Assembly: GCF_902728285.1 (NCBI RefSeq)
Contig: NW_027103826.1
Coordinates: forward strand, 116,759-180,758
Source of the DNA: Clytia hemisphaerica
Lineage: Eukaryota
Length of the DNA stretch: 64,000 nt
Reading direction: 5' to 3'
Shown here: piece by piece, positions 21,367-49,924 of the stretch
How the letters are laid out: each line of letters opens with the position of its first letter
Numbering within the stretch: position 1 is the stretch's first letter
Notes under the pieces: generated by a model
Told to the model about the DNA's origin: nothing
Seen by the model: only the letters and a program-made list of their open reading frames with translations
Databases searched by the model: none
Translations under genes and position numbers: made by a program

Positions 21367-22288
21367 TTAAAAAAGGTTAATGTGAAAAAAAATTTATATA
21401 ATAAGATATAGTCCAAAGTTTATCAATGATTGACTTCAAAAATTATCAAAAACGACAAAAAAGAGCCTTTTTTTTAGTCAAACAGGGATAAAGTTTTAAG
21501 CTGTATTTTTTTATTAAATGAAAAGTTTTTTAATATTTTTTCGCATTTATGACGTTCTAAGATTGACGAAATTCTGATACAAAAATGAAGATCATAGCGG
21601 TACAAGAAGTTGATTTTCTTCTTCTTCATTTTTCATCTTCGTTTTTCCATTTTTTAATTTTTTTCTTTTTTGATAATATTTTACTCCGAATTATCTTTTT
21701 AACGAGCCCAAAACCGTTAACTAATTCAAATTCTATCAAAATTTATCGAGGTTTGAAAATAAACTCTGCCAGCTAATTAGAAATAGACTTTACGAAATTC
21801 TCGCGGTTTTTCACCTTCAAAAGTCCTTCTAAGTGTTACAAAATTACAAAAGACTAAAGAGTAAAAAAAATGAAATATAGCCAATGGTTAGTGTGGAATA
21901 TTCAAGTTTTCCCAAGCAAGCAAAAGTGGTGCCTTTAAAGATTTACGCGGCATTTCACGGGTTGGCGGCATTTCACGGGTTGAATCTGTACTTTCTTCGT
22001 TTTGGGCGTTTTACATTTTTCAAATTCTGGCGATAGCGAAAAAATCCAGTGTTTACATGAAAACCACGCAGGCTGAGCAATATAGGTAGGGAATAAATCG
22101 CTTCAAACACTGAATATGAGATTGACTCTAGGTCGTTGACGTTCCATTTTTTTAGTCGTTTAGCATGCTAGACGATAACTTCAGTTCTATTGAAGAGCGT
22201 GAAAATTGTTATGTTGATGTATATTATAAAAGATTGTGAACTAGAAAATTCTAAAAAATATTTCGTAGTACATTCACATTAAAAGAAA

Positions 22289-25902: not shown

Positions 25903-26541
25903 TTAAGGAAGCCTGAGATTTCATAAAATGACGTATGTTCTAAATAACACTATTCTGAGTGCAAAAAAATGAGTCTCGTATTCTTATAAATGAAAGCCAT
26001 GCTTACTTTCCATCCACAGCCTCGAAGTGTGTCCATTTCAAACCTAATTCCCTCATCGAGTTCCTCATGTGCAAAAACCGATTTTTACGACGTTTCAAAT
26101 TGATGACAAAGATCTGTAAAAGAATTGAAAAGTGCTGGATTTGTATTCCAGTGCTTCTTTTTGCAATAGTTGTATAATAAAATGTTCAGGAAATGTATTT
26201 TCCATGTATTTAGGAAATTCAAACCATAGAAACTTTCGCATTCAGTTTTTTTTATTATCAATTCTAGTCATTTTCAGTTGATATCTAACCTTTCAATTAT
26301 TTTCGGTTTCCTTATTTAGAATGCATTGGATACTCAGATGGCTTAAGATTTTCGCCTTAAATTGTCCCCTTTACGTCCACTATGAGAATCCTCTTGTTTA
26401 GAGAAAATATTGATTGAAATAACGATTGACGTCAAATTGAAAAGGATCCTTGGGATCTTGAATCCTCAATTCAGAAATCCAATTTCCACAGAGTTAAGAT
26501 AAAAAATCCATGTCTTAGTGTGTCTCTACAGGGCAAAAATC

Positions 26542-28500
26542 GGATCAGGTGCAGTTAGCGTGGTCACTGGTTGGATTCTTTAGCAGTGGAGAGCACTGTT
26601 AAAGAATATAACCTAATGTCGTTTAACCTAATAATGTTATAAAATACAGACCAGAATATATTTCACTGTTAAACAATCCAACCTAGTCCACTGTTAAACA
26701 ATCCAACCTAGTCCACTGTTAAACAATCCAACCTAGTCCACTGTTTAACAATCCAACCTAGTCCACTGTTTAACAATCCAACCTAGTCCACTGTTTAACA
26801 ATCCAACCTAGTCCACTGTTTAACAATCCAACCTAGTCCACTGTTTTTTAACAATCCACCTAGTCCATACAGTCCAACTAGTCCACTGTTAACAATCCAA
26901 CCTAGTCCATGTTAAACAATTTGACCTAGTCCACTGTTAAACAATTTGACCTAGTCCACTGTTTAACAATTTAACCTATAGTCATGCCCGGTCCACTGTT
27001 AAACAATTTAACCTACAGTCATGTCCGGTTCACTGTTAAACAATCTGACGTAGTCCAACCCCTGGTCACTGTTTAACAATTTGACCTAGTCCACTGTTAA
27101 ACAATTTAACCTACAGCCATGTCCGATCCACTGTTAAACAATTTAACCTACAGCCATGTCCGGTCCACTGTTAAACAATCCAACTTAGTCCACTGTTTAA
27201 CAATCCAACCTAGTCCACTGTTTAACAATCCAACCTAGTCCACTGTTTAACAATCCAACCTAGTCCACTGTTAAACAATTTGACCTAGTCCACTGTTTAA
27301 CAATCCAACCTAGTCCACTGTTTAACAATCCAACCTAGTCCCACTGTTTAACAACAATCCAACCTAGTCCACTGTTAAACAATTTGACCTAGTCCACTGT
27401 TTAACAATCCAACCTAGTCCACTGTTTAACAATCCAACCTAGTCCACTGTTTAACAATCCAACCTAGTCCACTGTTTAACAATCCAACCTAGTCCACTGT
27501 TTAACAATCCAACCTAGTCCACTGTTTAACAATCCAACCTAGTCCACTGTTTAACAATCCAACCTAGTCCACTGTTTAACAATTTGACCTAGTCCACTGT
27601 TTAACAATCCAACCTAGTCCACTGTTTAACAATCCAACCTAGTCCACTGTTAAACAATTTGACCTAGTCCACTGTTAAACAATTTGACCTAGTCCACTGT
27701 TTAACAATTTAACCTATAGTCATGCCCGGTCCACTGTTAAACAATTTAACCTACAGTCATGTCCGGTTCACTGTTAAACAATCTGACGTAGTCCAACCCC
27801 TGGTCACTGTTTAACAATTTGACCTAGTCCACTGTTAAACAATTTAACCTACAGCCATGTCCGATCCACTGTTAAACAATTTAACCTACAGCCATGTCCG
27901 GTCCACTGTTAAACAATCCAACTTAGTCCACTGTTTAACAATCCAACCTAGTCCACTGTTTAACAATCCAACCTAGTCCACTGTTTAACAATCCAACCTA
28001 GTCCACTGTTAAACAATTTGACCTAGTCCACTGTTTAACAATCCAACCTAGTCCACTGTTTAACAATCCAACCTAGTCCACTGTTTAACAATCCAACCTA
28101 GTCCACTGTTAAACAATTTGACCTAGTCCACTGTTTAACAATCCAACCTAGTCCACTGTTTAACAATCCAACCTAGTCCACTGTTTAACAATCCAACCTA
28201 GTCCACTGTTTAACAATCCAACCTAGTCCACTGTTTAACAATCCAACCTAGTCCACTTTTTAACAATTTGACCTAGTCCACTGTTAAACAATTTAACCTA
28301 CAGCCATGTCCGGTCCACTGTTAAACAATCCAACTTAGTCCACTGTTTAACAATTTAACCTTAGTCATGTCCGGTCCACTGTTAAACAATCCAACCTAGT
28401 CCACTGTTAAACAATTCAACCTACAGTCATGTCCGGTCCACTGTTAAACAATTTGACCTAGTCCACTGATAAACATTCCAACCTAGTCCCATCCCTTGTC
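26542..28500 (+). repeat. Left arm of the giant element: unique terminus plus a ~1.85-kb minisatellite array (unit CCACTGTTTAACAATCCAACCTAGT, ~25 bp) with a ~730-bp higher-order periodicity
   Basis: Direct tandem units with variants (caatttgacctag, caatttaacctacagtcatgtccgg). Blocks at 26940..27180 recur at 27660..27900. Confidence 0.8.
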
Positions 28501-28699
28501 ACGAGTAAACAACCTAACTTAGTTTCATTCCTGGTCACTGGGTTCTTAAAAAAAGAAGAAACTCTCAGGCTCTCAGCTATCCAACGAGCTATAAAACAAA
28601 GTCTAAATCTTTCTGGTTCAGGAAGTATTGGCATTTAGATATTTTCCTAGCTCATTGTAACAAAAAAGGCACGGAACGCTGCTTGGTGAAAATACAGTA

Positions 28700-29950
28700 C
28701 ATGGTGTGATTTGCGTTGTCACTAAAAGAGGTAACGAGTGGTAAGGATGTGGTAACGAGTGGTAACGAGGTGGTAACGAGGTAACCAGTTAAATACGTTG
28801 GCCCTAAAAGGCTCTAATTTTGAATTACTCGATTCTGATGAATGTAGAGCAGGACAATGTTTCCAGTGAATATGATAGTGGAGTTGATGGTCCTGTTGAA
28901 TGTGCAGCAGGGGTTGGTGGTTTAGGTAAATGTGCATCAGAGTTTTATGGTTCTGGTGATTTTAATGGTGGAGTTGATAGTTCTGGTGAATGTGATGACA
29001 GAGTTGGTGTTTCTGGTGAATGGGAGGCAGAAGTTGATGGTTCTGGTTAATGTGCTGGTGGAGGTAACGTTACTGGTGAATTTGATGGTGGATTTGGTGG
29101 TTCTGGTGCATATGATTGTGGAGCAGGAGTTTGAGTTTCTTGTGGATGTAAGTTTGGAGCTTATAGGTATCTGGCAAAATAAGTCAAACACCGACAGTTG
29201 TTAATGTCTTTAGATAGATAGCATTTATCACAATTCTAGCCCTATAGAAAACTGTCAAACACTTGAATACAATATATCGAAATTCATGATAATCCATCCA
29301 TCCCAAGAACAACCAGACCTGATGTAGATCTACCAAAACTAACAGTCTTGCGCTAAGAAGCATCAGAACCAACATGTATTTCTGTAGAACCTTTATAACC
29401 ACAAGGATCTGTTGCATAACCACCAGAACAACCAGTTCCTGCACTGCAGAATCACCATAATCACAAGTTGCTGCTTAAGAATAAGCAGATCCTTTAGGTT
29501 TTGTTGCAGAATCACCAGAATAACAAGGTTCTGTTGCAAGGTCACCAGTTCATGTTGCAGAATCAACAGAACAAACATGTCCTGCTGCAGAATCACAAGG
29601 ACCACCAACTCTTCTATCACATTCACCTAAACCACCAACTCCTGATGCACATTCACCAGAACTACCAACTCTTGCTGCACATTCACCAAAACCAGCAGTT
29701 CCTGCGGCACATTCACCACAACCACTAGTCCCTACTGCAGATTCAACACAACCACCAGTTCCTGATGGACATTCACCAAAACCATGTTAACTAAAGCTGT
29801 AAAGGCATAAATCAGAATCGATTCTTTCGGTTTTACAATATTTGACTCTTTAGGGCTACCATTTTCAACTCGTTACCTCGTTACCACATCGTTACCACTC
29901 GTTACCAGCCGTTACCACTCGTTACCAGCCGTTACCACTCGTTACCACTT
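28700..29950. repeat. ~1.25-kb imperfect palindrome: GGTAACGAG mini-repeats and coding-like (GSGECD..VDGSG) 30 to 40-bp repeats on one arm, with their reverse complement on the other
   Basis: 28733..28790 (ggtaacgagtggtaacgagg..) pairs with 29866..29950 (ctcgttaccactcgttacc..). The 28820..29200 repeats are reverse-complementary to 29400..29780. The centre is near 29250..29350. Confidence 0.6.
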
Positions 29951-30754
29951 TTAGTAACAACGTGTGATTTAATGTATTTAGGAATTTGTATAAACTTTTT
30001 CTGCTTTTTCACACAGCCTACGTATTTATAAGGGCTACTTAGACTACACAATATATTGACGAACAATATTCGACAATATGGTTTGCGGACCGTAATGTAC
30101 GAAGTAAACAACTGGTACTCTATTATAAAAAGGAATTTTCTTTCTGTAAACAATCCCCCTTTATTGTTGGAATATTGCAAATCGAGCTGACAATATATTG
30201 CGGACACCTTTTCAATATATTGCCGACATTCAGCAATATACCATCAATATATTGCCCGACAATATATTGTGTAGTGTATGTAGCCCTATACGGTTTGAAA
30301 AGATGTTTTTACCGGTGTGAACCGGACACTCTCTATTGGTCATAACTCTATACCTAAATGGTTTGTCAGTGATTTGTTATCGGATATCGTATCTGTTCTC
30401 CGTTATGTCAGCTATTAAAATTAAAAAGTCATATAAAGATTTTTTTTAGCCAATCAGATTGCGTTTTGTCCTTGCGGCAAATGAGTAGAAGAAAAAAATA
30501 AAAACATATGTGTACTCCATTTTGAGAATGTGAGAATGAAGTTCAAGAAAAAGACTATTATTTATTTATCATGCATATTAAAAAGGCATTAACAATAGTG
30601 TCTACAATTTCTTCTTTTGTTCTTTCAAATCAAAAAAATACTTAAAGTTATATCTGGAAGCGTTTGCGTCGCTATTCACACATATATTTTTTTCTCATGG
30701 AAATTAATATTTCCACAAACGCAGGTTTTTCATATCATTGTCGACGCGTTTACT

Positions 30755-30936
30755 ATGGCTGCAGTGCATCGGAGATTTTTACAGAGATGGGGAGCATTAC
30801 TTTTAGGCAATGATAAAATTGCAATCATACATTTTCTACAAGGACAAGGTTTACTAAGTGTTGTCAAGATGTGTCAAACTTGTGGTTCGCCGATGCAACT
30901 TGAAGCTAATAGACAATGCCGTGATGGGTTTAGATG
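30755..30936 (+). CDS. IS1595/ISXO2-like (Merlin-superfamily) DDE transposase, exon 0 (ATG 30755; N-terminal zinc ribbon)
   Basis: MAAVHRRFLQRWGALLLGNDKIAIIHFLQGQGLLSVVKMCQTCGSPMQLEANRQCRDGFR(W) matches the IS1595 transposase zinc-ribbon N-terminus (..C..YL..RWP.G..CP.CG...). Donor tg|gtaagt is phase 2 and joins exactly to exon 1 (tg+g=W). Confidence 0.55.
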
Positions 30937-31822
30937 GTAAGTTTTTATCATGAAGTTGTAATCGTACCTTTAGTTTTGAGGCAATTTGAAATCCAACTTG
31001 CTCCCTTTGGGTTCTGGGTTAAGTTAAAGGCTCCTCCTTGCAAAAAGGCTAGAAATACATCTTAAAATAATTTATTACTTAGAATAAACACCCCTTCTTT
31101 TAAACACCTCCTCGGATAAAAGCCCCCTTTTTTAGGAAAATAATTAATAAACGTCTCCTCCTCAAATAAACGCTCTTCCCTGGAAGGGTTTTTTTATTTA
31201 AAAATAGGCTCTTAGTCGAAACTTTCATTTTGAGAGAGAAATGGATACTTCGACACACAAGAACAAGAACATCGATAATTTTTAAAAATGTTGTTATGGT
31301 ATAAAAATATATGTATCGCATTATCAAAAACAATTCTTCGTGTTTAATTTTTCAAAATTCTCGAATAAATGCGCACACCCCCTTAAAATCCAAAAAAACG
31401 AATTTTTCACGAATATGGCCCTAATTCGCAAAAGTTTCTTCAGAAAAATTAATCTCAGACAGGCAATTCGCAAAATATTTCTTTCGCGAAAGTTACTTTC
31501 TTTCAATCAATTTTTAGTCAGAGATAAAAAAATATTAAAATGATCTAAGAGACAATCATTAATTAATACAAATACATTTTCTAGTCCATAACAACTAACG
31601 TTTCCTTTTTTTCATCAAAACGTGATTAAAACAGTACGCATTTTTATATAATTTGCGAAAACTTCTTCCGTAAAAGTAATTTCGGAGAGCTCAATTCACG
31701 AAATATTTTCCGCGAAAATTACTTCCCTTAGGGTAGGAGCGATAATGGAATGTAGTTAGAAGGTCGGTTATGACAACATAAATTTTATCCAGACAATTTC
31801 TAACACAGATATTTTTGTTTAG

Positions 31823-32123
31823 GAGGTGTAACCGACCATGTCGCAGATGTTTGAGGCTCCGAGATGGGACAATATTTGAATCGTGGACGCATATTTCCCT
31901 TAGTGATTTATTTTTGATAATCTTCCTGTGGTCAAACAACGTTTCTATGACCAAAATAACGAATATTGTTGGAATACCAAAAAAAACAGTGATCAAAATG
32001 TTGCAGCTTCTTCGCCAAGTCTGTACGAATGATCTAGCCAGAAACCCAGTTGCTATTGGTGGTGGGGGGGGTGCTAATTTTGTTGTCCAGATTGACGAGA
32101 GCCAATTCCATCACAGGCAAAGA
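31823..32123 (+). CDS. Merlin/ISXO2-like transposase copy 1, exon 1
   Basis: Acceptor tttgtttag, donor AGA|gtatgt. Encodes RCNRPCRRCLRLRDGTIFESWTHISLSDLFLIIFLW..TKITNIVGIPKKTVIKMLQLLRQV..VAIGGGGGANFVVQIDESQFHHRQR. These are the second Cys pair, the HTH, and the first catalytic Asp of the DDE motif (V.IDES). Confidence 0.65.
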
Positions 32124-32324
32124 GTATGTTTTCATACGAGTGAGAGAGATTTTTAACTACATTTTGCTCAAAAGTTTGTCATTCTTTTAAATTTTTGATA
32201 GAATCGAATGCATATTTTGCAGTTTAGTCTTAACAAAAAAATTGAATATTTTCCAAAGTGCGTTCGACTTCATTACATAATGTTGTTTTGACCCTATTCT
32301 TTTAATTCTCGTTTCTTTATATAG

Positions 32325-32603
32325 GGAGGAAGAGGAAGAAGAGCGCAGGCACCTGTTTGGGTATTTGGCTTGGCCGATACTCAATACACACCCGCCAAAG
32401 GCTATATGGAAATTGTGAACAGGCGAAATAGGCCCACTCTCACTGCTGTAATTAATCGGGTTTTGAACCCTAACTCTGTCATACATAGCGATGAATGGCG
32501 TGCTTACAATAGGCTTCGAAACTTTGTACCGAACTGCATACAACACGATACCGTAAACCATACATACAACTTTGTCGATCCTCTAACAGGAGCCCACACA
32601 CAG
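32325..32603 (+). CDS. Merlin/ISXO2-like transposase copy 1, exon 2
   Basis: Acceptor tttatatag, donor CAG|gtaacc. Encodes GGRGRRAQAPVWVFGLADTQ..TLTAVINRVLNPNSVIHSDEWRAYNRLRNFVPNCIQHDTVNHTYNFVDPLTGAHTQ. This fits the ISXO2-like consensus (GGK.K.RGR...V.G.VER......L..II...V..GS.I.TDEW.GY..L..GY.H.TVNHS..FVDP.TG.HTN). Confidence 0.7.
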
Positions 32604-32809
32604 GTAACCAGACAATAATTTTTTGTAAAATTAGCCATTGGGCTCGGTACATTTTTTTAGTTCTCTGTAAAATTCTTGTAAAGTTTGCAGTTCCCTAAAA
32701 ACCCCACCCCACCCATAAAAGTAAAAGCTTTGAAAAGTGATATTTTTAACGTTTTTATATTTTAGAAAAGTTTATACTTTTTTCAAACCCTTTCTTTTTT
32801 TTTCATTAG

Positions 32810-32910
32810 AACATTGAATCGTACTGGAACCGTTTTAAGCTGAAACTGAAAGCTATGAAAGGTGTCGAACGAGCCAATTTACAAAGTTACATGAACGAGT
32901 TCATGTGGAG
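32810..32910 (+). CDS. Merlin/ISXO2-like transposase copy 1, exon 3
   Basis: Acceptor ttcattag, donor ag|gtaatt. Encodes NIESYWNRFKLKLKAMKGVERANLQSYMNEFMW (consensus NTIEGFWS.LKR...G...L..YL.EF.FR). Confidence 0.6.
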
Positions 32911-33232
32911 GTAATTATTTTTCAATCGGAAAGAAATGATTTGAAGCTACCTGACACTGGCAGGCCTCTCATAACAGATGAGATGAAGTTTTTATAAGAT
33001 ACTTTAATGATTGGTCATTTGAAGTAATAACAATGACGTGTTCTTTAGAAAAAGTAACAAAATTGTTTTATTACTGGTTAACGACCAACCGAATCAAATG
33101 AGAGCTTGTAAAAATTCAATCTCGTCCCTCTCATAAGGAATAAAACAGCTAGTCCTAAATTTTTATTGGGTTTAAACGTCATTTGATAATCCATAGATTA
33201 GGCAATTTAATGATTTTGTAATTCTTTTTTAG

Positions 33233-33305
33233 GGACTGGTATGGACTAGACCAAACATTTGACAACATAATCAACCGGATAAATATTGATTATCCACAAG
33301 CTTAA
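33233..33305 (+). CDS. Merlin/ISXO2-like transposase copy 1, exon 4 (stop TAA 33303..33305)
   Basis: Acceptor tttttag. Encodes (R)DWYGLDQTFDNIINRINIDYPQA*. The five exons sum to 936 nt, which is 312 codons, so the phases are consistent. Confidence 0.55.
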
Positions 33306-34503
33306 GTTTGCTTTCATTGAAGTATGATTTTTATGTTTTCTTTTGTTATTGATTCACAAGTCATAGTTTGACTTCTAGAGACTAAAGCTATTTTTAGGTA
33401 TTTTGTATGTATATGGTATAACATTTCATTATGCAGAACAAAGACTCTTACCATTAAAAATATACTTTAACTCTTTATATTTTGCCCTTTCCGCCAAAAT
33501 TTGTCTCGCGATATCGCGTGGGATCGTCGATTCGCGAAATCAAATCGTCAAATCCACGCGAAATTTTTGAAACTACCATTTTAGCAAACAAAGTTATCAA
33601 AACCATGCAATTTTGGTAAAATATGTCCATTTTTAGGGTCTTTCGCGAAATTATACTCACGCGAAAGTCTTGACTCACAAAATTAAATCCTATTAAAGTA
33701 GCCTTAATCTGTCTTATCTTGAAATTGTTCACATTGGTTAGTGCTCCTTCTTTTCCAGGCAACGTTGAAAAAAAGGTAAACAAACAGGGTAAAAAGGCAC
33801 GTATAGTAGTGACAGGAACAATGTGAAAAGTATACTTGGGTGCGATGTATACTTGTCTTGGGTGCGAGGAATACTTATGAAATGTACAGTGCTCAGTAAA
33901 ATTGTTTTGTGTAAGTTCCTGTGAAAAGTGCTGAACATCCTAGTTTGGAAGATAGGCAAAAAAGTGTTCTTTTTCGCAAAGGTTGATTTTAGTTAAATCG
34001 GAGTCAAATGGGTCAATCATGAAAATTAATTCTTGCGAAATATATAGTCAAATAATCTTGATTTCCTTAAGATTTGCTCAAAAATTAAGAACATCTTAAA
34101 AACATGCCAAGGTTGAAATGAAGAAGAAAAGTCTACTAAGGGATTCTTAACGCTTAAATAACAGACACAAAACATAATTTCAACATTGTTTCAATGTCCA
34201 ACTAATGTCTGATGTTGAAATAACATTTTTTGAACAACAAATTTCAAAGCTACTTTTTTGGATTCATTTTCTCAAAAAAATTGTTTTTAGCACTTACAAG
34301 TACCATAACGGGCGTTTTTCAGACTTGTCGAGCGCCCTCTCCACCCGATATAATTTATTTATAGAAGTGTATTTCTCAGGTCCATTGACCTCTATGAAAC
34401 AATCTTACATTTTTACAATTTATAGATCTTATCATTCGTTTGTCAATTCTGTTATAGAGTTTTACAGTTAGGTACCTGGGCCTCTAACCCACTCTTCTTA
34501 TAA

Positions 34504-35455
34504 TCATGTTGTTTCCGTCGAAAATTTCTTTAAATAGAGTTTAGTCCTAGGACTACCTCTCACTTTCCATATACCACTCTTGTCTTTTTCATTCGATGTT
34601 TTTTCTTTTGCTTTACGATGCCATTGTTTTATTATCTCCCGTTCTTTCCTTGAAAAATCGTCTGATACCCTGAAATCATCTTTATCTAGTTTGTGGGCTG
34701 ATGCAAGTATTCTAATCCTTTCTTCTTCACTCTCGAGAGTAACTTTCAATGGTCTCCATCGTTCATTTGTATACATTTCATCTTTACGAGCACCTATGCG
34801 TCTTCTACCTTGATTATCGTCACATCGAAAACCCATTTGTTGTTTCAGTATTCTTTCTATGAAATCTTTGTCACCAACTCGTTGCTCTTCTTCGTTTTCG
34901 TGCTTGTTTTCACCTAAATCATGCACCATGATGTTGCACTTGGTTGATTTGAGCCAACGCTCCTCTTCGTTCACTGATTTGATGAAACTTTTTATGGTCA
35001 CCTCTTGTTTTTTGTAGATCTTCTTTGGTGACTTCTGCATATGATTGTTTTTTTGTTTCTGTGTTGTTGAGCTGTGTTTCAGATCGTTTGTTGTTCCGTT
35101 CTTTGTTGACGTCTTTTTTTTTCATTAGCTTCTCGATTTTCCTTTCTAGAGAGGTTATTCTCTCGTTGAAACCTAATTTCAATCCATGATGTTCATCTTT
35201 GTCTGCTTCTTTCGTTGTGATGTCACTGCGAGCTTTTTGTCTGCTTGTTTTAATCCTCTCAAATAAGAGTGGCGTTATTGTAACACAATTTCCACATTCG
35301 AAGCGCCGGCTTTTATATTGCAGACAAAGCTGAATCTGATAGGCCGGGAGCTCAGAGCAAGCATAATGGACAAGTCTATCACATCTCCTACATTGTAAGG
35401 TGTCGTTATCTTCTATGATGGTGTTTATCAAACAGTTATTGGTTGTGCAATACAA
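34504..35455 (-). pseudogene. Frameshifted duplicate of the L1 ORF1p-like gene (tandem-duplication copy 1)
   Basis: Two overlapping frames (34504..35040 and 34919..35455) together cover the same protein as 39355..40302. Indels of 4 nt net break the frame. Confidence 0.55.
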
Positions 35456-36671
35456 TATCCATAATTTTTTTGAATTTCCTTGTTAGAATTTTCGTTGATT
35501 TCCGTCATATTGTTGCATTTTCAGGATCGTGGCAGCACAGAAAAAATTTGACGTCAATATATAAGGGGGGGTAAACCGGCCGGAGTACCATTTTCAACTA
35601 GTAATATCTCCTAAACCAAGCATTTTATGAGGCTTTTGTAGCTACCAATCGAAAGAGGACAAAATTCTGAACAAAAAAAACTGGTTTTGGGCGCCACCTA
35701 GCCGTTAACGATTATCACCATGCATTAACTCCTTTGATACCGTTCCAGCCAAAATCGTTCCTATTGGAACGACGTTTTCTCCAGCCTCTGATAGAAAGAA
35801 ATTTTCAATCGCTTTGAAACTGCATTTTCTTGAAAGTTGATACTTTTAATTAAAACGAAAACGACGTTTTCATACCGTGAAAAGCACAGCTCAAAATCAT
35901 ATATTTACGCTGTGCCGACGAATCGAGATTCTATTCATCGCGCAATCAGCGAAGACAAAAGTAACCATGACGACCATCCAAGATCTTGGATGAGCGTCAT
36001 AGTCGATATTTTTATTCCCGTCGTTGAAAACACAACTTACAAAAAGTCATCAATGCTTTTTAAAAAGAGTCAGTGATAGAGAATCATAACATAAAGTCTG
36101 TCTATTATTTCGATTCAATTAAAGTGACATTTCCATAATTAAAAGTTTAGTAATTACTGTTATACATTTGGGGATCATGTAAGAGATTTCTTTCGAAATA
36201 AACTCATTTCAACTAAACTTGGAGGTTGTTTCTGGGGAATTCGTAAATAGTAAACTGCATACTGATACAGTCTGCTAGACATTAATATGGTAATATTTGC
36301 TCTTCATCTTTGATTTTTTTTACAGTGATTAGATTGACACATGCGCGATAAAATTTCTATTATTTTGTCTTCAGAGGTTACTATTTTCTTTGAAAACTTA
36401 ACCTCTGATACTCAGGGTAACGTTTTCAAGTCTTTCATTAGTAAGTACGTTTCCTTTTTTTCATCAAAACGTGATTAAAACAGTACGCATTTTTATATAA
36501 TTTGCGAAAACTTCTTCCGTAAAAGTAATTTCGGAGAGCTCAATTCACGAAATATTTTCCGCGAAAATTACTTCCCTTAGGGTAGGAGCGATAATGGAAT
36601 GTAGTTAGAAGGTCGGTTATGACAACATAAATTTTATCCAGACAATTTCTAACACAGATATTTTTGTTTAG

Positions 36672-36969
36672 GAGGTGTAACCGACCATGTCGCAGATGTT
36701 TGAGGCTCCGAGATGGGACAATATTTGAATCGTGGACGCATATTTCCCTTAGTGATTTATTTTTGATAATCTTCCTGTGGTCAAACAACGTTTCTATGAC
36801 CAAAATAACGAATATTGTTGGAATACCAAAAAAAACAGTGATCAAAATGTTGCAGCTTCTTCGCCAAGTCTGTACGAATGATCTAGCCAGAAACCCAGTT
36901 GCTATTGGTGGTGGGGGTGCTAATTTTGTTGTCCAGATTGACGAGAGCCAATTCCATCACAGGCAAAGA
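36672..36969 (+). CDS. Merlin/ISXO2-like transposase copy 2, exon 1. This is the duplicated paralogue; its unit has no exon 0, so it is probably 5'-truncated
   Basis: Near-identical to 31823..32123 with one Gly codon fewer. There is no upstream zinc-ribbon exon inside its 4.85-kb unit. Confidence 0.5.
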
Positions 36970-37170
36970 GTATGTTTTCATACGAGTGAGAGAGATTTTT
37001 AACTACATTTTGCTCAAAAGTTTGTCATTCTTTTAAATTTTTGATAGAATCGAATGCATATTTTGCAGTTTAGTCTTAACAAAAAAATTGAATATTTTCC
37101 AAAGTGCGTTCGACTTCATTACATAATGTTGTTTTGACCCTATTCTTTTAATTCTCGTTTCTTTATATAG

Positions 37171-37452
37171 GGAGGAAGAGGAAGAAGAGCGCAGGCACCT
37201 GTTTGGGTATTTGGCTTGGCCGATACTCAATACACACCCGCCAAAGGCTATATGGAAATTGTGAACAGGCGAAATAGGCCCACTCTCACTGCTGTAATTA
37301 ATCGGGTTTTGAACCCTAACTCTGTCATACATAGCGATGAATGGCGTGCTTACAATAGGCTTCGAAACTTTGTACCGAACTGCATACAACACGATACCGT
37401 AAACCATACATACAACTTTGTCGTCGATCCTCTAACAGGAGCCCACACACAG
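37171..37452 (+). CDS. Merlin/ISXO2-like transposase copy 2, exon 2
   Basis: Same as copy 1 exon 2 with a 3-nt insertion (..NFVVDPLTG..). Confidence 0.5.
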
Positions 37453-37658
37453 GTAACCAGACAATAATTTTTTGTAAAATTAGCCATTGGGCTCGGTACA
37501 TTTTTTTAGTTCTCTGTAAAATTCTTGTAAAGTTTGCAGTTCCCTAAAAACCCCACCCCACCCATAAAAGTAAAAGCTTTGAAAAGTGATATTTTTAACG
37601 TTTTTATATTTTAGAAAAGTTTATACTTTTTTCAAACCCTTTCTTTTTTTTTCATTAG

Positions 37659-37759
37659 AACATTGAATCGTACTGGAACCGTTTTAAGCTGAAACTGAAA
37701 GCTATGAAAGGTGTCGAACGAGCCAATTTACAAAGTTACATGAACGAGTTCATGTGGAG
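37659..37759 (+). CDS. Merlin/ISXO2-like transposase copy 2, exon 3
   Basis: Identical splice sites and coding sequence to copy 1 exon 3. Confidence 0.5.
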
Positions 37760-38086
37760 GTAATTATTTTTCAATCGGAAAGAAATGATTTGAAGCTACC
37801 TGACACTGGCAGGCCTCTCATAACAGATGAGATGAAGTTTTTATAAGATACTTTAATGATTGGTCATTTGAAGTAATAACAATGACGTGTTCTTTAGAAA
37901 AAAGTAACAAAATTGTTTTTATTACTGGTTAACGACCAACCGAATCAAATGAGAGCTTGTAAAAATTCAATCTCGTCGTCCCTCTCATAAGGAATAAAAC
38001 AGCTAGTCCTAAATTTTTATTGGGTTTAAACGTCATTTGATAATCCATAGATTAGGCAATTTAATGATTTTGTAATTCTTTTTTAG

Positions 38087-38159
38087 GGACTGGTATGGAC
38101 TAGACCAAACATTTGACAACATAATCAACCGGATAAATATTGATTATCCACAAGCTTAA
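38087..38159 (+). CDS. Merlin/ISXO2-like transposase copy 2, exon 4 (stop 38157..38159)
   Basis: Identical to copy 1 exon 4. Confidence 0.5.
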
Positions 38160-39354
38160 GTTTGCTTTCATTGAAGTATGATTTTTATGTTTTCTTTTGT
38201 TATTGATTCACAAGTCATAGTTTGACTTCTAGAGACTAAAGCTATTTTTAGGTATTTTGTATGTATATGGTATAACATTTCATTATGCAGAACAAAGACT
38301 CTTACCATTAAAAAATATACTTTAACTCTTTATATTTTGCCCTTTCCGCCAAAATTTGTCTCGCGATATATCGCGTGGGATCGTCGATTCGCGAAATCAA
38401 ATCGTCAAATCCACGCGAAATTTTTGCTACCATTTTAGCAAACAAAGTTATCAAAACCATGCAATTTTGGTAAAATATGTCCATTTTTAGGGTCTTTCGC
38501 GAAATTATACTCACGCGAAAGTCTTGACTCACAAAATTAAATCCTATTAAAGTAGCCTTAATCTGTCTTATCTTGAAATTGTTCACATTGGTTAGTGCTC
38601 CTTCTTTTCCAGGCAACGTTGAAAAAAAGGTAAACAAACAGGGTAAAAAGGCACGTATAGTAGTGACAGGAACAATGTGAAAAGTATACTTGGGTGCGAT
38701 GTATACTTGTCTTGGGTGCGAGGAATACTTATGAAATGTACAGTGCTCAGTAAAATTGTTTTGTGTAAGTTCCTGTGAAAAGTGCTGAACATCCTAGTTT
38801 GGAAGATAGGCAAAAAAGTGTTCTTTTTCGCAAAGGTTGATTTTAGTTAAATCGGAGTCAAATGGGTCAATCATGAAAATTAATTCTTGCGAAATATATA
38901 GTCAAATAATCTTGATTTCCTTAAGATTTGCTCAAAAATTAAGAACATCTTAAAAACATGCCAAGGTTGAAATGAAGAAAAGTCTACTAAGGGATTCTTA
39001 ACGCTTAAATAACAGACACAAAACATAATTTCAACATTGTTTCAATGTCCAACTAATGTCTGATGTTGAAATAACATTTTTTGAACAACAAATTTCAAAG
39101 CTACTTTTTTGGATTCATTTTCTCAAAAAAATTGTTTTTAGCACTTACAAGTACCATAACGGGCGTTTTTCAGACTTGTCGAGCGCCCTCTCCACCCGAT
39201 ATAATTTATTTATAGAAGTGTATTTCTCAGGTCCATTGACCTCTATGAAACAATCTTACATTTTTACAATTTATAGATCTTATCATTCGTTTGTCAATTC
39301 TGTTATAGAGTTTTACAGTTAGGTACCTGGGCCTCTAACCCACTCTTCTTATAA

Positions 39355-40302
39355 TCATGTTGTTTCCGTCGAAAATTTCTTTAAATAGAGTTTAGTCCTA
39401 GGACTACCTCTCACTTTCCATATACCACTCTTGTCTTTTTCATTCGATGTTTTTTCTTTTGCTTTACGATGCCATTGTTTTATTATCTCCCGTTCTTTCC
39501 TTGAAAAATCGTCTGATACCCTGAAATCATCTTTATCTAGTTTGTGGGCTGATGCAAGTATTCTAATCCTTTCTTCTTCACTCTCGAGAGTAACTTTCAA
39601 TGGTCTCCATCGTTCATTTGTATACATTTCATCTTTACGAGCACCTATGCGTTCTACCTTGATTATCGTCACATCGAAACCCATTTGTTGTTTCAGTATT
39701 CTTTCTATGAAATCTTTGTCACCAACTCGTTGCTCTTCTTCGTTTTCGTGCTTGTTTTCACCTAAATCATGCACCATGATGTTGCACTTGGTTGATTTGA
39801 GCCAACGCTCCTCTTCGTTCACTGATTTGATGAAACTTTTTATGGTCACCTCTTGTTTTTGTAGATCTTCTTTGGTGACTTCTGCATATGATTGTTTTTT
39901 TGTTTCTGTGTTGTTGAGCTGTGTTTCAGATCGTTTGTTGTTCCGTTCTTTGTTGACGTCTTTTTTTTTCATTAGCTTCTCGATTTTCCTTTCTAGAGAG
40001 GTTATTCTCTCGTTGAAACCTAATTTCAATCCATGATGTTCATCTTTGTCTGCTTCTTTCGTTGTGATGTCACTGCGAGCTTTTTGTCTGCTTGTTTTAA
40101 TCCTCTCAAATAAGAGTGGCGTTATTGTAACACAATTTCCACATTCGAAGCGCCGGCTTTTATATTGCAGACAAAGCTGAATCTGATAGGCCGGGAGCTC
40201 AGAGCAAGCATAATGGACAAGTCTATCACATCTCCTACATTGTAAGGTGTCGTTATCTTCTATGATGGTGTTTATCAAACAGTTATTGGTTGTGCAATAC
40301 AA
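39355..40302 (-). CDS. LINE-1 ORF1p-like protein (Transposase_22-like RRM plus C-terminal domain) with an N-terminal PHD-like C4HC3 zinc finger and a coiled coil; 315 aa, intact
   Basis: The C-terminal half (KCNIMVHDLGE...FIERILKQQMGF...RWRPLKVTLESEEERIRILASAHKLDKDDFRVSDDFSRKEREIIKQW) parallels L1 ORF1p (NLRIIGVPE...R.IIVKF.K...KE.IL.AAREK....G..IRL.AD.SAET...RREW). The N-terminus is CLINTIIEDNDTLQCRRCDRLVHYACSELP..C..C, followed by a K/E-rich coiled coil. There is no RT or endonuclease ORF nearby. Confidence 0.6.
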   Translation of the reverse strand: MYCTTNNCLINTIIEDNDTLQCRRCDRLVHYACSELPAYQIQLCLQYKSRRFECGNCVTITPLLFERIKTSRQKARSDITTKEADKDEHHGLKLGFNERITSLERKIEKLMKKKDVNKERNNKRSETQLNNTETKKQSYAEVTKEDLQKQEVTIKSFIKSVNEEERWLKSTKCNIMVHDLGENKHENEEEQRVGDKDFIERILKQQMGFDVTIIKVERIGARKDEMYTNERWRPLKVTLESEEERIRILASAHKLDKDDFRVSDDFSRKEREIIKQWHRKAKEKTSNEKDKSGIWKVRGSPRTKLYLKKFSTETT

Positions 40303-41809
40303 TATCCATAATTTTTTTGAATTTCCTTGTTAGAATTTTCGTTGATTTCCGTCATATTGTTGCATTTTCAGGATCGTGGCAGCACAGAAAAAATTTGACG
40401 TCAATATATAAGGGGGGGTAAACCGGAGTACCATTTTCAACTAGTAATATCTCCTAAACCAAGCATTTTATGAGGCTTTTGTAGCTACCAATCGAAAGAG
40501 GACAAAATTCTGAACAAAAAAAACTGGTTTTGGGCGCCACCTAGCCGTTAACGATTATCACCATGCATTAACTCCTTTGATACCGTTCCAGCCAAAATCG
40601 TTCCTATTGGAACGACGTTTTCTCCAGCCTCTGATAGAAAGAAATTTTCAATCGCTTTGAAACTGCATTTTCTTGAAAGTTGATACTTTTAATTAAAACG
40701 AAAACGACGTTTTCATACATACCGTGAAAAGCACAGCTCAAAATCATATATTTACGCTGTGCCGACGAATCGAGATTCTATTCATCGCGCAATCAGCGAA
40801 GACAAAAGTAACCATGACGACCATCCAAGATCTTGGATGAGCGTCATAGTCGATATTTTTTATTCCCGTCGTTGAAAACACAACTTACAAAAAGTCATCA
40901 ATGCTTTTTAAAAAGAGTCAGTGATAGAGAATCATAACATAAAGTCTGTCTATTATTTCGATTCAATTAAAGTGACATTTCCATAATTAAAAGTTTAGTA
41001 ATTACTGTTATACATTTGGGGATCATGTAAGAGATTTCTTTCGAAATAAACTCATTTCAACTAAACTTGGAGGTTTCTGGGGAATTCGTAAATAGTAAAC
41101 TGCATACTGATACAGTCTGCTAGACATTAATATGGTAATATTTGCTCTTCATCTTTGATTTTTTTTACAGTGATTAGATTGACACATGCGCGATAAAATT
41201 TCTATTATTTGTCTTCAGAGGTTACTATTTTCTTTGAAAACTTAACCTCTGATACTCAGGGTAACGTTTTCAAGTCTTTTCATTAGTAAGAAAACGCCCC
41301 GCAAACTTTCTCATTTCTCAATTGTTCTCTTTCTGGCGGTATTGAAAGAGTTAAAACAACGCTCCGTGCCTGCTATTACGGTTCTCTAGAGAATTGGACT
41401 CGTATATAGAAGAACATTAAGAAGAACATCCCATCTGAAAATTGAGAAAATAAAGTCCAAATAATACGTAAATACGATTTTAGAACAAAATTAAAATGCC
41501 TTGCGCATGATTTTATTTTCGTCACCCGGTAATGCAGAAATGAAGAGTTTTTAGATTTGGCCGCGGGTTGAATTTTTTTCATTCATTCATTCATTCATTT
41601 AATGAATGAAAATGAAATGGGATGTCTTTTCCCCCAAAAGAGCAAGAAAAAAAATTTAATCACGTGTTTTTTTTTCTTTCACGTTTTTTTTCTTTTGTAT
41701 CCCCTTTTCATTTTTCTTTCTTTATTTGTTGGCTTGAACGTCAGACGTTCACATTAGTAAACTTTGAGGGAGATTTCATTTCGGTCATTTGCCAATTGAA
41801 ATCGTAATC

Positions 41810-43521
41810 ATGACCTTTGAAGACATATTAGCGATTTGTGAAGATGAGCAAGTTTTGATAAGGGAGCTGATGGATGCTGGCTTATTAGCGAGTACAAGAA
41901 AATGTATGAACCGGAGAAAACACGAAGACGATATTCAGATGATATTATTGCCAGATATGAAGACTTGGTAAGACGTTTTAATTTGCTTTTGTTTACCCTG
42001 AAAAATCATTTACGTTTCTATGAAGCTCTTTCTCCTTTCATGAATCTGATAAATATCAATCTCAAAGATGTTTGATACTTTCATTTGAAGTCTTAAAAGC
42101 CTTTAAATATAAAATATATCAAGAAACAAAGTCTAATAAAATATCAACACAATATATCAGCAGTAAACAAATAACTGACGCTTAAAAGCGGCAATTTTTT
42201 AATCCCCAGTAAGTTAATTATTTTTAACTTATTTTTTGCCTACATGTTTTTAAGGCGATGCCCAAGATGTACAAGCAAAGCTTCATTCAAGACGGGGTCG
42301 TTTTTTTCGCAAACAAATATACCACTTTCAAAATGGATTCAAGGCATTGATAGATGGGCACGCCAGATGAGCCTTAGGGTAATGATATATTTAAAAAAGA
42401 GGACACAATGAAAAAAACAGACCTTTATGTCCTTTATCGTAAATACTAACCTGATATTCATATGCTGAATTTTCTATCGGTACGTTTTTAAAGCTCTAAA
42501 GACACAATGAAAATATACCATCTACGTAGGCTAGGTCATCTTTTCAAAGCCCTACCTTAAGCTTAAGTAGCTAAATGCATACCCAGCAGGCATGGGACGT
42601 TGTTTTAACGTCCAAAATACGTTTTAAGAAATTTTAAGCTCTTAACAATTTCGGTCCAGTTTAAAAATAAAAACCAGTAAACAGTTTAAAATGTCTGCGA
42701 AATTTTCATGTAATAAAATATACTTTGATTCTTTAGGAGATTGCTGAGGATTTGGACTTGTCGATTCCTACAACAAGCCAAATGATGAAGCATTTTCGAG
42801 AGCAGTGTCAAAGTTTTTTCGACCGCAATCTTCATGAAACTGGTGGCCCTGGTATTCAAGTAAAAGTTAAAGAACTTAAGGTAATACCATTTTTACCGGT
42901 TGAAAGAGAGATCGCTACAATCGGTACAAAATCCTTTTTGCTTATTACCTAACCCTAACAAGAAACTATTTAAAAACAAAAGGTTGTTGAATCAAAACTA
43001 ACCAGATGGCCCGGCTGGTATCCTACTTAAAATTTGGGTATTTCTTAAAAAAGAGAATAGATAACATCGGGTGCCTAGGATTTGTTACTCTTAATCTAGA
43101 CTCAAATTAGTTTTATACTTTTTTTCAATAGAAATGCACCAACACGTGTAATATTCTTATCGCGTTAGATGGCAGTTGCGGACGAGGATACCTTTTCCAC
43201 AATACCAATGGAAGATTCCAGGAAGAAGATTATATGTTTGTGTCACCAATCAAGTCTGGAACCATGGTCTTCACCGACATTCGCGATTTAAACGTAAGGC
43301 CAAATGTTGCCATGTCCAATACTCTGGAGTTGTTTCAAGGCAATGACGATCAAGCGACACAAGCAATTAGATGGCTCAGGCACTTCAGAGGGGTACAATG
43401 TCAAAAGGCTGGTGCCCTATTATCTGAATATAATTTGCGCTTTTGGGTCGATGATGGACTGGAATTCCATGAAAGATTTTTTCAAGCTTTCGTAAGAAAC
43501 TATGAAAATGAATTTGTATAA
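41810..43521 (+). pseudogene. Divergent third IS1595/Merlin-like transposase paralogue, probably degenerate or catalytically inactive. Exon-like blocks at 41810..41967, 42737..42880 and 43132..43521
   Basis: Block A, MTFEDILAICEDEQVLIRELMDAGLLASTRKC.., is the N-terminal F.DE..C..L motif. Block B, EIAEDLDLSIPTTSQMMKHFREQC...TGGPGIQVKVKELK, aligns to ITNIVGIPKKTVIKMLQLLRQVC...GGGGGANFVVQIDES with the first catalytic D replaced. Block C, ..ILIALDGSCGRGY..FTDIRDLNVRPNVAMSNTLELFQGN..RHFRGVQCQKAGALLSEYNLRFWV, aligns to IHSDEWRAY..FVDPLTGAHTQNIESYWNRFK..LQSYMNEFMW. The GGK/RGR linker segment is missing and the A-to-B phases do not join cleanly. Confidence 0.4.
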
Positions 43522-43639
43522 ACTAAAATATATTGATCGCTAATTGTTGATTAAAGTGATAGTTTTTTATGGATCTATGAAAATCTTATATTTTTTATTG
43601 TTCTTTTTTTGAGAAAAAAAATATAAACTTAATTCCTAT

Positions 43640-44882
43640 GCTTTCATCGCCTATGCTTTCATCAATTTGACTAGGTCAAATTGTTTAACAGTGAACCGGA
43701 CATGGCTCTAGGTTGGATTGTTAAACAGTGGAAGGTTGGATTGTTTAAAAGTGGACTAGGTCAAATTGTCAGTGGACCGGACATGACTGTAGGTTAAATT
43801 GTTAAACAGTGGACTAGGTTGGATTGTTAAACAGTGGACTAGGTCAAATTGTTTAACAGTGGACCGGACATGACTGTAGGTTAAATTGTTAAACAGTGGA
43901 CTATAGGTTGGATTGTTTAACAGTGGACTAGGTTGGATTGTTAAACAGTGGACTAGGTTGGATTGTTAAACAGTGGACTAGGTTGGATTGTTAAACAGTG
44001 GACTAGGTCAAATTGTTTAACAGTGGACTAGGTTGGATTGTTAAACAGTGGACTAGGTCAAATTGTTTAACAGTGGACCGGACATGACTATAGGTTAAAT
44101 TGTTAACGTGGACTAGGTGGTTGGTTACTAGTGGACTAGAGGTTGGATTGTTTAACAGTGACCGGACATGGCTAGGGTTGGATTGTTAAACCGTGGATTA
44201 GGTTTGGCTTGTTAAACAGTGGACTGTAGGTTGGCTTGTTTTCACAGTGGACTTGGGGGTTGTTTAAACAGTGGACTGGTTGGATTGTTAAACAGTGGAC
44301 TAGGTTGGATTGTTTAAACAGTGGACTAGGTTCAAATTGTTTACAGTGGACTGTTGGCTTGTTAAACAGTGGACTAGGTCAAATTGTTTAACAGTGGACC
44401 GGATGTGTGGTTTGTTAAACAGTGGACTAGGTTGGATTGTTAAACAGTGGACTAGGTTGGATTGTTAAATAGTGGACTAGAGGTTGGATTGTTTAACAGT
44501 GAACCGGACATGGCTAGGTTGGATTGTTAAACAGTGGATTAGGTTGGATTGTTAAACAGTGGACTAGGTTGGATTGTTAGTGAAATTGTTAAACAGTGGA
44601 CTAGGTTGGATTGTTAAACAGTGGACTAGGTTGGATTGTTAAACAGTGGACTAGGTTGGATTGTTTAACAGTGGACTAGGTTGGATTGTTTAACAGTGAA
44701 CTAGGTCAGATTGTTTAACAGTGGACCGGACATGATTATAGGTTGGATTGTTTAACAGTGAAATACTTTCTGGTCTGTATTTTATAACATTATTAGGTTA
44801 AACGACATTAGGTTATATTCTTTAACAGTGCTCTCCACTACTAAAGAATCCAACCAGTGACCACGCTAGCTGCACCTGATCC
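43640..44882 (-). repeat. Right arm of the giant element: the same minisatellite in inverted orientation plus a unique terminus
   Basis: CTAGGTTGGATTGTTAAACAGTGGA units are the reverse complement of the left array. 44760..44882 is the reverse complement of 26542..26650. Confidence 0.8.
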
Positions 44883-45631
44883 CAAAAATCAAAACCACCC
44901 GATCGCCCTTTTCAGGAGTTCTGCAAATTCTAACTCAAGAGCTACAAATAAGGATTTTAAAATCATGTAAAGTCACCTCCTCAAATTCAGCAAAAGTAGG
45001 TTTAGGAAATCGATGAGGTATATTTGGACTTCGCACTATTTCCTCGCCGTGTGCTTCACCTGAAATAAGTGGATTTATATTGTTATTAAAGGTTATACTA
45101 GGAACAAGTGTAAATTATAGTCTATGCTCTTTCATAGGACACAGTTAATAAAGGGTCATTCGACATCAGTTATGAAATTGAACACTTTTCAACCAGACCA
45201 AAGGAAAACAACATCGGAAAATTTCGAAATACTAGGTTACGCAAGCTCTTTTTAGCGTATCAGAACTATACAGACGAACAAAGAATTAGTAGACATCTCA
45301 AAGCTACTAACTTTTGGAAAAATCTTTGGGGGGCAAATGCCCCCCCCCCCCCCCCGGTTGCTACGGGCCTGAACTGACCTCGAACCGGGAAAGCAACCAA
45401 GAGTTCCCAAAGAAGAAGCATTTTGAGCATTATTTGGCATTGAAATGTGCACCGATGGTATTCGAATACCTAATTAGAGGTATCTTGAATATAAAATGAG
45501 ATAAAAGCCAAAATTTTCGAAGTTGCTAAACATTTTAGGCTCAAAATCTATGCGCATCTTTTTGACTGAAATCCAGAAAATCCTTAGCAACTCCAGAACT
45601 CTTGAAAAGACTCGGAAAACAGATGACCTAC

Positions 45632-49381: not shown

Positions 49382-49924
49382 CACAATGAAAACTGACCTT
49401 CCGTTTCTTGTTTTATTTATCTATGATGAAAATATCAAAAAATATTCACCGAGCCATCAAGTGTATTTCTGGATGTGCGTACTCTGTATTCGTGCTTTTG
49501 TCTCTGAATAAAAACGGAGAAAGTAAATATAATACCAATACATCATACCATTGCAAAATTGCATTTTTACTTTATGTGGCATACATCTACATATTACACT
49601 ACGTATCATTTTTGATTGCAACTCGTTTTACTACCTCATCTACTAAATGGAGGTAATTAAGATAGATAATTAAAGAAAGTCTATTATGCTATCAATGAAA
49701 TACGGAAATGAATCAATTAAAGTGAATATAAACAAGCAACATGCTGAATGGACCTACCTGATTAACATCAGATGAAAATAAGAAAAAAGTGACAATAATT
49801 GTACAAAAATTCAGAATGGAAAAATAAAGCTTGTGTGTTGAATAATGTAAAATGGTAAAAAGGAATTTCCCCAAATACGAAAATCACTTAAACCATTCAG
49901 GCTCAAAAAACCTTTTAAGCTGTT

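Follow-up and report, generated by a model that had tools for sequence, protein, structure and literature searches.

A large, apparently young Merlin element of Clytia hemisphaerica has gained a PHD + ORF1p-like gene and has undergone an internal head-to-tail duplication. The two units of this duplication differ by 18 indels of 1-4 nt and by 0 substitutions (an absence that had been missed in an earlier note on this DNA), the indels show no bias with respect to coding sequence or reading frame, and the ORF1p-like gene carries the same frameshift in either unit. On balance, we favour a young and real duplication, created by non-homologous joining or a template switch, with neutral slippage indels that are mostly consensus noise and with no part played by selection.

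Anatomy of the element and of the duplication

Within the window, by which we mean the whole 64,000-nt stretch of DNA that was analysed, the element (Table 1) possesses both the TIRs and the 8-9-bp target-site duplication that characterise Merlin. The TIRs are 144 nt each and 97% identical, and a perfect 8-bp target-site duplication, CAAAAATC, flanks the element at 26534-26541 and 44883-44890. The spliced transposase matches Pfam PF12762 (DDE_Tnp_IS1595) at E=5.1e-20 (72.5 bits; cutoff 27), confirming its earlier identification as a transposase, and exon C by itself is recognised as DDE_Tnp_IS1595 at E=5e-7. A cysteine pattern, CQTCG...CRDGFRWRCNRPCRRC, runs across exons A and B, and a search for PF12760 (Zn_Tnp_IS1595) gave no match at E<=0.01. 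Near-identical annotated paralogues of the transposase exist in Clytia hemisphaerica (P0071, 100%; P0033, 99%).

Table 1. Features of the Merlin element and its internal duplication (positions in the window).
Feature	Position	Strand	Remarks
Merlin/IS1595-type DNA transposon, entire	26542..44882	+	18,341 bp; TIR alignment, flanks, transposase Pfam match
Left TIR, unique part (GGATCAGGTGCAG...)	26542..26685	+	TIR alignment
Left subterminal array of 25-mers (CACTGTTTAACAATCCAACCTAGTC)	26664..28523	-	
Transposase exon A (with start codon and zinc-ribbon-like CxxC region)	30755..30936	+	upstream of duplication
Duplication unit 1	31598..36446	+	4849 nt; left breakpoint in transposase intron 1
Transposase exons B-E, copy 1	31823-32123, 32325-32603, 32810-32910, 33233-33305	+	open
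PHD + LINE-1 ORF1p-like gene, copy 1	34504..35508	-	shared 5-nt frameshift and three private insertions
Duplication unit 2	36447..41290	+	4844 nt
Transposase exons B-E, copy 2	36672-36969, 37171-37452, 37659-37759, 38087-38159	+	open
PHD + LINE-1 ORF1p-like gene, copy 2	39355..40355	-	315-codon frame open, cut off from ATG
Right subterminal array, 25-mer as in left array but inverted	43669..44760	+	
Right TIR, unique part	44739..44882	-	TIR alignment

The tandem duplication of 2 x 4.85 kb inside the transposon, with units about 99% identical, holds up as first described: there are two head-to-tail units with one novel junction, and blastn aligns them over 4865 columns at 99.2% identity including gaps, with 0 mismatches, 18 gap openings and a bit score of 8739 that excludes chance. 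Microhomology at the junction (36446/36447, ...GTAAG-T-ACGTTT) amounts to 1-2 nt at most, and a search for flanking repeats at the breakpoints found none, for which reason we reject unequal homologous recombination via such repeats. Nor are the units two adjacent or nested full elements, given that the unit ends lack TIRs and that exon A, which matches P0071 residues 1-61 at 100%, occurs a single time in the window.

We envisage that non-homologous joining or a template switch made the duplication. The breakpoints lie in transposase intron 1 and, ahead of the antisense ORF1p-like gene, approximately 1 kb upstream, so that each unit contains transposase exons B-E and the entire ORF1p-like gene while exon A is single. 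A full transposase comes only from a transcript joining exon A to copy 1, in line with the earlier claim that the gene is complete only via copy 1. Copy 2 has no exon A of its own, which reflects the position of the breakpoint within intron 1 rather than decay. Exact-protein look-ups in public assemblies (P0033, P0014, P0071, P0073, the 315-aa ORF of copy 2 and the 178-aa frameshift ORF of copy 1) returned none, and two metagenome scans with the junction 24-mer and the FV(V)DP site gave 0 matches.

Indels without substitutions

Nearly all of the indels (16/18) are of the tandem or homopolymer type expected of slippage, and the single-base ones lie within runs in 8/8 cases, runs of at least 4 holding 14% of bases. 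Even if substitutions and indels were to occur at a ratio of 1:1, the probability of seeing 0 substitutions among 18 events would be <=4e-6. How are these differences distributed? The earlier note had read them as a sign of selection on coding capacity, allowing that differences spread evenly and consistent with sequencing error would refute it. This is essentially what we find: a uniform spread along the unit fits the indel positions (KS p=0.49). Classifying the aligned differences by coding status and frame, as had been proposed, reveals neither coding depletion nor frame bias. Five of the 18 indels are coding, with 36% of the unit coding (binomial p=0.63), and in-frame versus frameshifting indels number 2 versus 3 in coding and 4 versus 9 in non-coding sequence (Fisher p=1).

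These figures leave little room for a scenario in which selection kept the transposase readable along with one ORF1p-like copy while the other decayed. Two observations might be thought to favour such reciprocal partitioning: the two indels in transposase exons each have a length divisible by 3, and all three frameshifting unit-private coding indels lie in the ORF1p-like gene of copy 1. However, two in-frame indels are obtained by chance with a probability of 0.098, the ORF1p-like gene is frameshifted in either copy, and both transposase indels are derived insertions, one of them lying 9 residues ahead of the catalytic E region of a conserved motif. Moreover, with zero substitutions, selection has not had the time to act. 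We regard this scenario as highly improbable. What survives is the fallback offered alongside it, namely that the duplication is very recent.

Other repeats in the window provide a yardstick. The two units differ at an indel density of 0.37%. A piggyBac-like MITE pair (20013-20637 and 20749-21374) shows 0 substitutions and indels at 0.32%, and a 738-bp duplication in the left 25-mer array (26878-27523 versus 27614-28257) shows 0 substitutions and 4 indels, or 0.62%. Older repeats have a normal spectrum, with 4 substitutions and 0 indels between the TIRs and 37 mismatches and 9 gaps in a 322-bp array. The recurrence of the indel-only pattern in two unrelated young pairs points to a noise floor or to general slippage, not to selection.

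Alternatively, the duplication itself might be false, with an assembler, scaffolder or gap-closer placing one unit, or its two alleles, twice, so that the indels would be consensus errors or allelic differences. In heterozygous, haplotype-merged assemblies, allelic sequences are known to land in tandem. An indel-only difference over 4.85 kb, equal indel densities in two further repeat pairs and an arbitrary junction devoid of repeats would all fit, as does the fact that the published Clytia genome is about 0.9% heterozygous and required haplotype merging (10.1101/369959). At this level, however, alleles should differ by about 40 SNPs where we find 0, which makes tandem haplotype copies unlikely, and long reads, typically exceeding a 4.85-kb repeat, normally resolve such repeats. 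The 2018/2019 assembly was built from Illumina and 454 data with SOAPdenovo2/HaploMerger2 (10.1101/369959); our literature search for a long-read Clytia assembly yielded nothing usable, only this Illumina+454 description. A stretch of 64 gap-free kb that includes 1.8-kb 25-mer arrays would favour long reads as the source of the window.

The transposase offers an independent check. We find the in-frame 3-nt indels reported previously, GGGGG/GGGG in exon B and FVDP/FVVDP in exon C. GGGG is the form found in every independent Clytia transposase record (P0071, P0072, P0033), and FVDP in every one except P0073, so that each copy has one derived insertion: GGG in copy 1, yielding GGGGG (G8 run 32064-32071), and GTC in copy 2 (37420-37422), yielding FVVDP. 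FVVDP recurs in P0073 (UniProt A0A7M5X7V9), an independent record, and units 1 and 2 are therefore not a single sequence read twice. The FVDP/FVVDP difference fits two distinct independently annotated records, P0072 and P0073, which means that no fewer than two real and distinct sequences underlie the units and lends indirect support to the copy number. Judged by these protein records, the GTC insertion is certainly real and not noise. False tandem duplications in draft assemblies arise when allelic or overlap sequence is put down twice; the Clytia units resemble such cases in differing by indels alone, as other repeats in the window do, and depart from them in that FVVDP exists in an independent record. 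Taken together, we consider a false duplication a rather unlikely, though serious, competitor.

Imagine instead that the duplication and all or most micro-indels are real, stemming from an indel-prone process such as repeated dissociation and mis-reinvasion in synthesis-dependent gap repair following excision. All three zero-substitution pairs reside in DNA transposons (Merlin body, Merlin subterminal array, piggyBac-like MITE), the GTC insertion is real, and P0033 is set apart from the canonical transposase protein by a 2-nt deletion along with a single substitution. In addition, a 5-nt tandem duplication found in both units must already have been present in the template, the polarisable private differences are insertions in 5/5 cases, and alleles are weakly clustered in blocks between the units (runs test p=0.045). 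Against this, about 1 indel per 270-540 nt would demand an error rate well above that of known repair synthesis, a technical noise floor accounts more simply for the equal densities, independent verification covers 1/18 indels, and the independent records contribute few events (2 indels versus 1 substitution). Such a process strikes us as improbable, and we are equally doubtful of its generalisation, that young Clytia cut-and-paste transposon copies, like the 4.85-kb duplication itself, bear slippage scars of 1-5 nt at intervals of a few hundred bases long before they gain substitutions. Were this true, repair micro-indels would break transposon reading frames first, a built-in, mutation-driven route to inactivation. 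If the micro-indels are real, the locus is a compact natural record of a gap-repair error signature in a cnidarian and provides a testable account of DNA transposon decay.

To return to the duplication that we favour, real and neutral, it would be so young that no base substitution yet separates its units, and most of the 18 indels would represent assembly consensus noise in repeats that cannot be polished, with a few being real. With a length of 2-4 nt, however, 10 of the 18 indels are large for leftover consensus errors. The reality of the GTC indel, together with the 2-nt deletion in P0033, hints at true family copies that are rich in indels. If the window assembly is of HiFi grade, the 18 indels are not noise and the indel-only spectrum needs a biological cause. 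In any event, near-identical repeats in this assembly differ by indels alone, so that calls of frameshift or of intact versus decayed copies of repeated genes here should not be relied on unless reads back them.

A PHD + ORF1p-like gene disrupted in both units

The ORF1p-like gene had been described as intact only in copy 2, and with the transposase as one of two cargo genes in reciprocal decay. Neither description is borne out. The 315-codon frame of copy 2 (39355-40302) has no ATG, and the actual start, ATG 40355 (MTEINENSNKEIQKNYGYC), is out of frame with it owing to the 5-nt tandem duplication TATTG|TATTG. This duplication is common to both copies (35448-35457 in copy 1, 40295-40304 in copy 2), and removing one TATTG yields a 331-aa protein whose N-terminus agrees with homologues. 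The frameshifting indels noted in copy 1 are present, as private insertions relative to copy 2: TC at 34801 (+2 nt), A at 34828 (+1) and T at 35008 (+1). The ORF1p-like gene is hence frameshifted twice and transposase exons B-E are open twice; the former had already become a pseudogene when the duplication arose.

That the gene product resembles LINE-1 ORF1p is evident from its predicted structure. In an AlphaFold2 model (pLDDT 80-94 over residues 150-315), a long coiled-coil helix is followed by an RRM and then a C-terminal domain, the architecture of L1 ORF1p, and the best 10 Foldseek matches in the PDB are all human L1 ORF1p (E 2.6e-7 to 6e-5). The top match is to the ORF1p trimer (2YKO/2YKP/2YKQ) and spans about 229 aligned columns (E=2.6e-7, prob 1.00), which supports the original label. 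At the sequence level, neither the 315-aa frame nor the repaired 331-aa protein matches Pfam Transposase_22 / L1 ORF1p; the former has a sub-threshold PHD match alone (17.5 bits versus a cutoff of 24), the latter no Pfam match at E<=0.001, and a profile search of PDB sequences recovers MLL PHD fingers only.

There are further differences from LINE-1 ORF1p. Identity is just 15%, the Clytia protein has a PHD-like finger at its N-terminus, and its gene sits, frameshifted, inside a DNA transposon with no adjoining ORF2, endonuclease or RT: inside the unit, the minus strand has no downstream ORF of at least 110 aa, and the sole RVT_1 match in the 64-kb window lies at 55448-56002. Its homologues, both in Clytia and on contigs roughly 1.3 kb long, stand alone as proteins of some 320 aa. 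The gene does not appear to be a regular Merlin partner either. It is absent from three related Merlin contigs (L002-L004), and a contig with an ORF1p-like gene (L001) is without transposase; as these four contigs never pair the two, we treat the gene as captured or nested, not core.

Comparison with known systems

Merlin, a superfamily of DNA transposons in eukaryotes, is related to IS1595/IS1016 of bacteria and has a transposase described by Pfam DDE_Tnp_IS1595. The Clytia element shares with it this domain, including the motifs VQIDES / HSDEW / NIESYW, the 8-bp target-site duplication and TIRs beginning GG. Unlike other Merlin elements, it is very large (18.3 kb), carries subterminal 25-mer arrays of 1.1-1.9 kb, has a transposase gene of five exons and contains a 4.85-kb tandem duplication internally; unlike the related Merlin contigs, it bears an antisense PHD + ORF1p-like gene.

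The duplication also invites comparison with the internal rearrangements that double-strand-gap repair produces in the cut-and-paste transposons P element, Ac/Ds and Mutator, which it resembles in that its junction, inside a DNA transposon, is non-homologous and shows microhomology of no more than 1-2 nt. Whereas the classic products of gap repair in those systems are internal deletions and filler DNA, the Clytia case is a clean 4.85-kb duplication, whose mechanism we infer.

The tandem pair and the element that carries it

Comparing the region from 29 to 44 kb with itself reveals a single long match in direct orientation (31598-36445 against 36447-41290) between units of 4849 nt and 4844 nt, so that the coordinates, unit size and "about 99%" identity given in the earlier note are correct. 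The alignment of the pair spans 4865 columns at 99.2% identity, with 18 gap openings and no mismatches. This complete lack of substitutions is the key fact, and one that the earlier note overlooked.

The duplication sits within a single large element (26542-44882; 18,341 bp), whose 144-nt TIRs begin with GGATCAGGTGCAG and which is surrounded by a perfect 8-bp target-site duplication (CAAAAATC). Its transposase has five exons, B to E being present again in unit 2, and when spliced is 99-100% identical to two independent Clytia hemisphaerica records, XP_066936947 (P0033) and XP_066924142 (P0071). Because the protein matches Pfam DDE_Tnp_IS1595 (E=5e-20), the element is a Merlin/IS1595-type DNA transposon. 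Between its left subterminal array and the transposase gene lie two mutually inverted arrays with a 30-nt period (28866-29123 and 29543-29784); an ORF inside the first (28820-29050) has no Pfam match. The window is of eukaryotic origin, and its GC content of about 35% compares with 35% in the published Clytia genome (10.1101/369959).

Coordinates of repeats and coding features in the window
Feature	Position	Strand	Details
piggyBac-like MITE pair	20013-20637 and 20749-21374		0 substitutions, 2 homopolymer indels (A7/A8, T3/T4), 0.32%
25-mer subterminal arrays	26664-28523 and 43669-44760		mutually inverted
738-bp higher-order duplication, left 25-mer array	26878-27523 vs 27614-28257		0 substitutions, 4 indels, 0.62%
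Transposase exon A	30755-30936
Transposase exon B	31823-32123
Transposase exon C	32325-32603
Transposase exon D	32810-32910
Transposase exon E	33233-33305
315-codon frame of ORF1p-like gene, copy 2	39355-40302	minus
322-bp-unit tandem array	49904-51017		3.5 copies, 93% identical, 37 mismatches, 9 gaps

Differences without substitutions

Aligned base by base, the units differ by eight 1-nt, two 2-nt, six 3-nt and two 4-nt indels, a density of 0.37%. All eight single-base differences are homopolymer changes, and 16 of the 18 are of slippage type (exact tandem or homopolymer). Even with a 1:1 ratio of substitutions to indels, the probability of seeing no substitution among 18 events is at most 4e-6; ordinary neutral divergence cannot account for such a spectrum.

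Two unrelated young repeat pairs of the window, the MITE pair and the 738-bp duplication, show a matching signature at a matching density. The MITE copies (about 625 bp each, 111 bp apart) have TTAA flanks and termini CCCTTTAA.../...TTAAAGGG. Within the 738-bp duplication 432 nt are exactly identical (26910-27341 and 27648-28079), and all four derived states, judged against the 25-mer consensus, fall in the first copy. Older repeats, in contrast, show a normal spectrum: left and right TIRs differ by four substitutions and no indels, and the 322-bp array is, in the ordinary way, dominated by substitutions. An indel floor of this kind, about 0.2% per base in each copy and independent of age, is how residual consensus error shows itself in repeats beyond the reach of short-read polishing.

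Elsewhere in the window, an intact single-ORF gene (18293-19312, minus strand; 339 aa, Fibrinogen_C domain, Pfam E=4e-42), probably a host gene, shows no frameshift over a 1-kb stretch of unique coding sequence. Despite its 35% GC content, the window contains 30 G or C runs 7-16 nt long (for example at 17203-17474, 45340-45355 and 61804-61816), several of them inside repeats; the C16 run at 45340-45355 lies just beyond the right TIR, in sequence that weakly matches the GGGG motif of the transposase (E=1.5). Broken reverse-transcriptase fragments of a non-LTR retrotransposon (54125-56002, minus strand; RVT_1, E=6e-10) include a C10 run in their coding region. Mutually inverted arrays of an 18-mer (TGCGTGGGTCAATATTTT) at 60420-60764 and 61520-61742, about 750 bp apart, look like subterminal repeats of another small DNA transposon.

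Coding capacity of the two cargo genes

Transposase exons B to E are open in both units, and exon A is absent from copy 2 simply because the left breakpoint falls in intron 1. GGGG is found in every independent Clytia record compared (P0071, P0072 and P0033) and FVDP in all but P0073; each unit therefore has one derived insertion, GGGGG (a run of G8 where copy 2 has G5) in copy 1 and FVVDP (a tandem duplication of GTC) in copy 2. Two changes set P0033 itself apart from the canonical protein, a single substitution and the loss of 2 nt in exon E (TGGTATGG to TGGTGG), and the family may be genuinely indel-rich. Noise does not explain everything, since FVVDP recurs, next to records with FVDP, in P0073 (UniProt A0A7M5X7V9, from the Illumina/454 assembly): at least one indel between the units is real, and the units are therefore not one sequence read twice. 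This argues against a duplication made by the assembler, which we regard as unlikely if still worth weighing.

The 315-codon frame of the antisense gene has about 30 homologues (51-60% identical, about 320 aa), some from Clytia and others from short marine contigs. Pfam returns only a sub-threshold PHD finger, and membership of Transposase_22 was not found at the sequence level. An AlphaFold2 model built from the family alignment reaches pLDDT 80-94 across the C-terminal 165 residues; because human LINE-1 ORF1p accounts for each of its ten best matches in the PDB (E 2.6e-7 to 6e-5), the label ORF1p-like holds for the predicted fold (coiled coil, RRM, CTD). We found no ORF2 near the gene. It is absent from related Merlin contigs, the transposase is absent from one homologue's contig, and the gene has the look of a captured or nested one rather than of a core component of Merlin. 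On that contig (L001, from JGI; ORFs 2-976 and 1186-2226) the homologue, 58% identical, lies 210 bp downstream of a same-strand ORF (324 aa, cut by the contig end, weak TPR match only), a layout which hints that the family can belong to a two-ORF unit.

The earlier note held this gene to be intact only in copy 2, which is wrong; the rest of what it observed is confirmed. Homologues start about 18 residues upstream of the long frame, with MA.K..E....E....YG.C, and the matching start (ATG...MTEINENSNKEIQKNYGYC, at 40355 in copy 2 and 35508 in copy 1) is in a different frame in both units. A 5-nt tandem duplication, TATTG-TATTG (40295-40304 and 35448-35457, minus strand), parts start from long frame after codon 19; deleting one TATTG gives a 331-aa protein bearing the family N-terminus. 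As both units share this lesion, itself one more short indel of the tandem-duplication type, the gene was already frameshifted before the 4.85-kb duplication. Insertions of TC at 34801, A at 34828 and T at 35008 are private to copy 1.

Reciprocal decay under selection, as the earlier note proposed, is thus left unsupported, and we consider selection highly improbable. None of the tests of position, coding share or frame reveals a signal among the 18 indels: their positions are compatible with a uniform spread (KS p=0.49), five fall in coding sequence, which makes up 36% of the unit (p=0.63), and in-frame to frameshift ratios are 2:3 where the sequence is coding and 4:9 where it is not (Fisher p=1.0). 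By chance alone, two in-frame indels in transposase exons would be expected with a probability of 0.098. The spread is essentially the uniform one, consistent with error, that the earlier note itself had named as counting against its reading; its fallback, a very recent duplication, is supported.

Origin of the duplication

We lean towards a duplication inside the element that is real and extremely young, with micro-indels that are for the most part technical and in a few cases genuine slippage changes. That a real indel-prone repair process produced them strikes us as rather improbable. The finding as a whole is an ordinary one. Microhomology at the junction (...CATTAGTAAG-T-ACGTTTCC...) does not exceed 1-2 nt and no flanking repeats were found there, which favours non-homologous joining or template switching as the probable route over unequal crossing-over. 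Aberrant gap repair after excision would be a natural source of such rearrangements in a cut-and-paste transposon.
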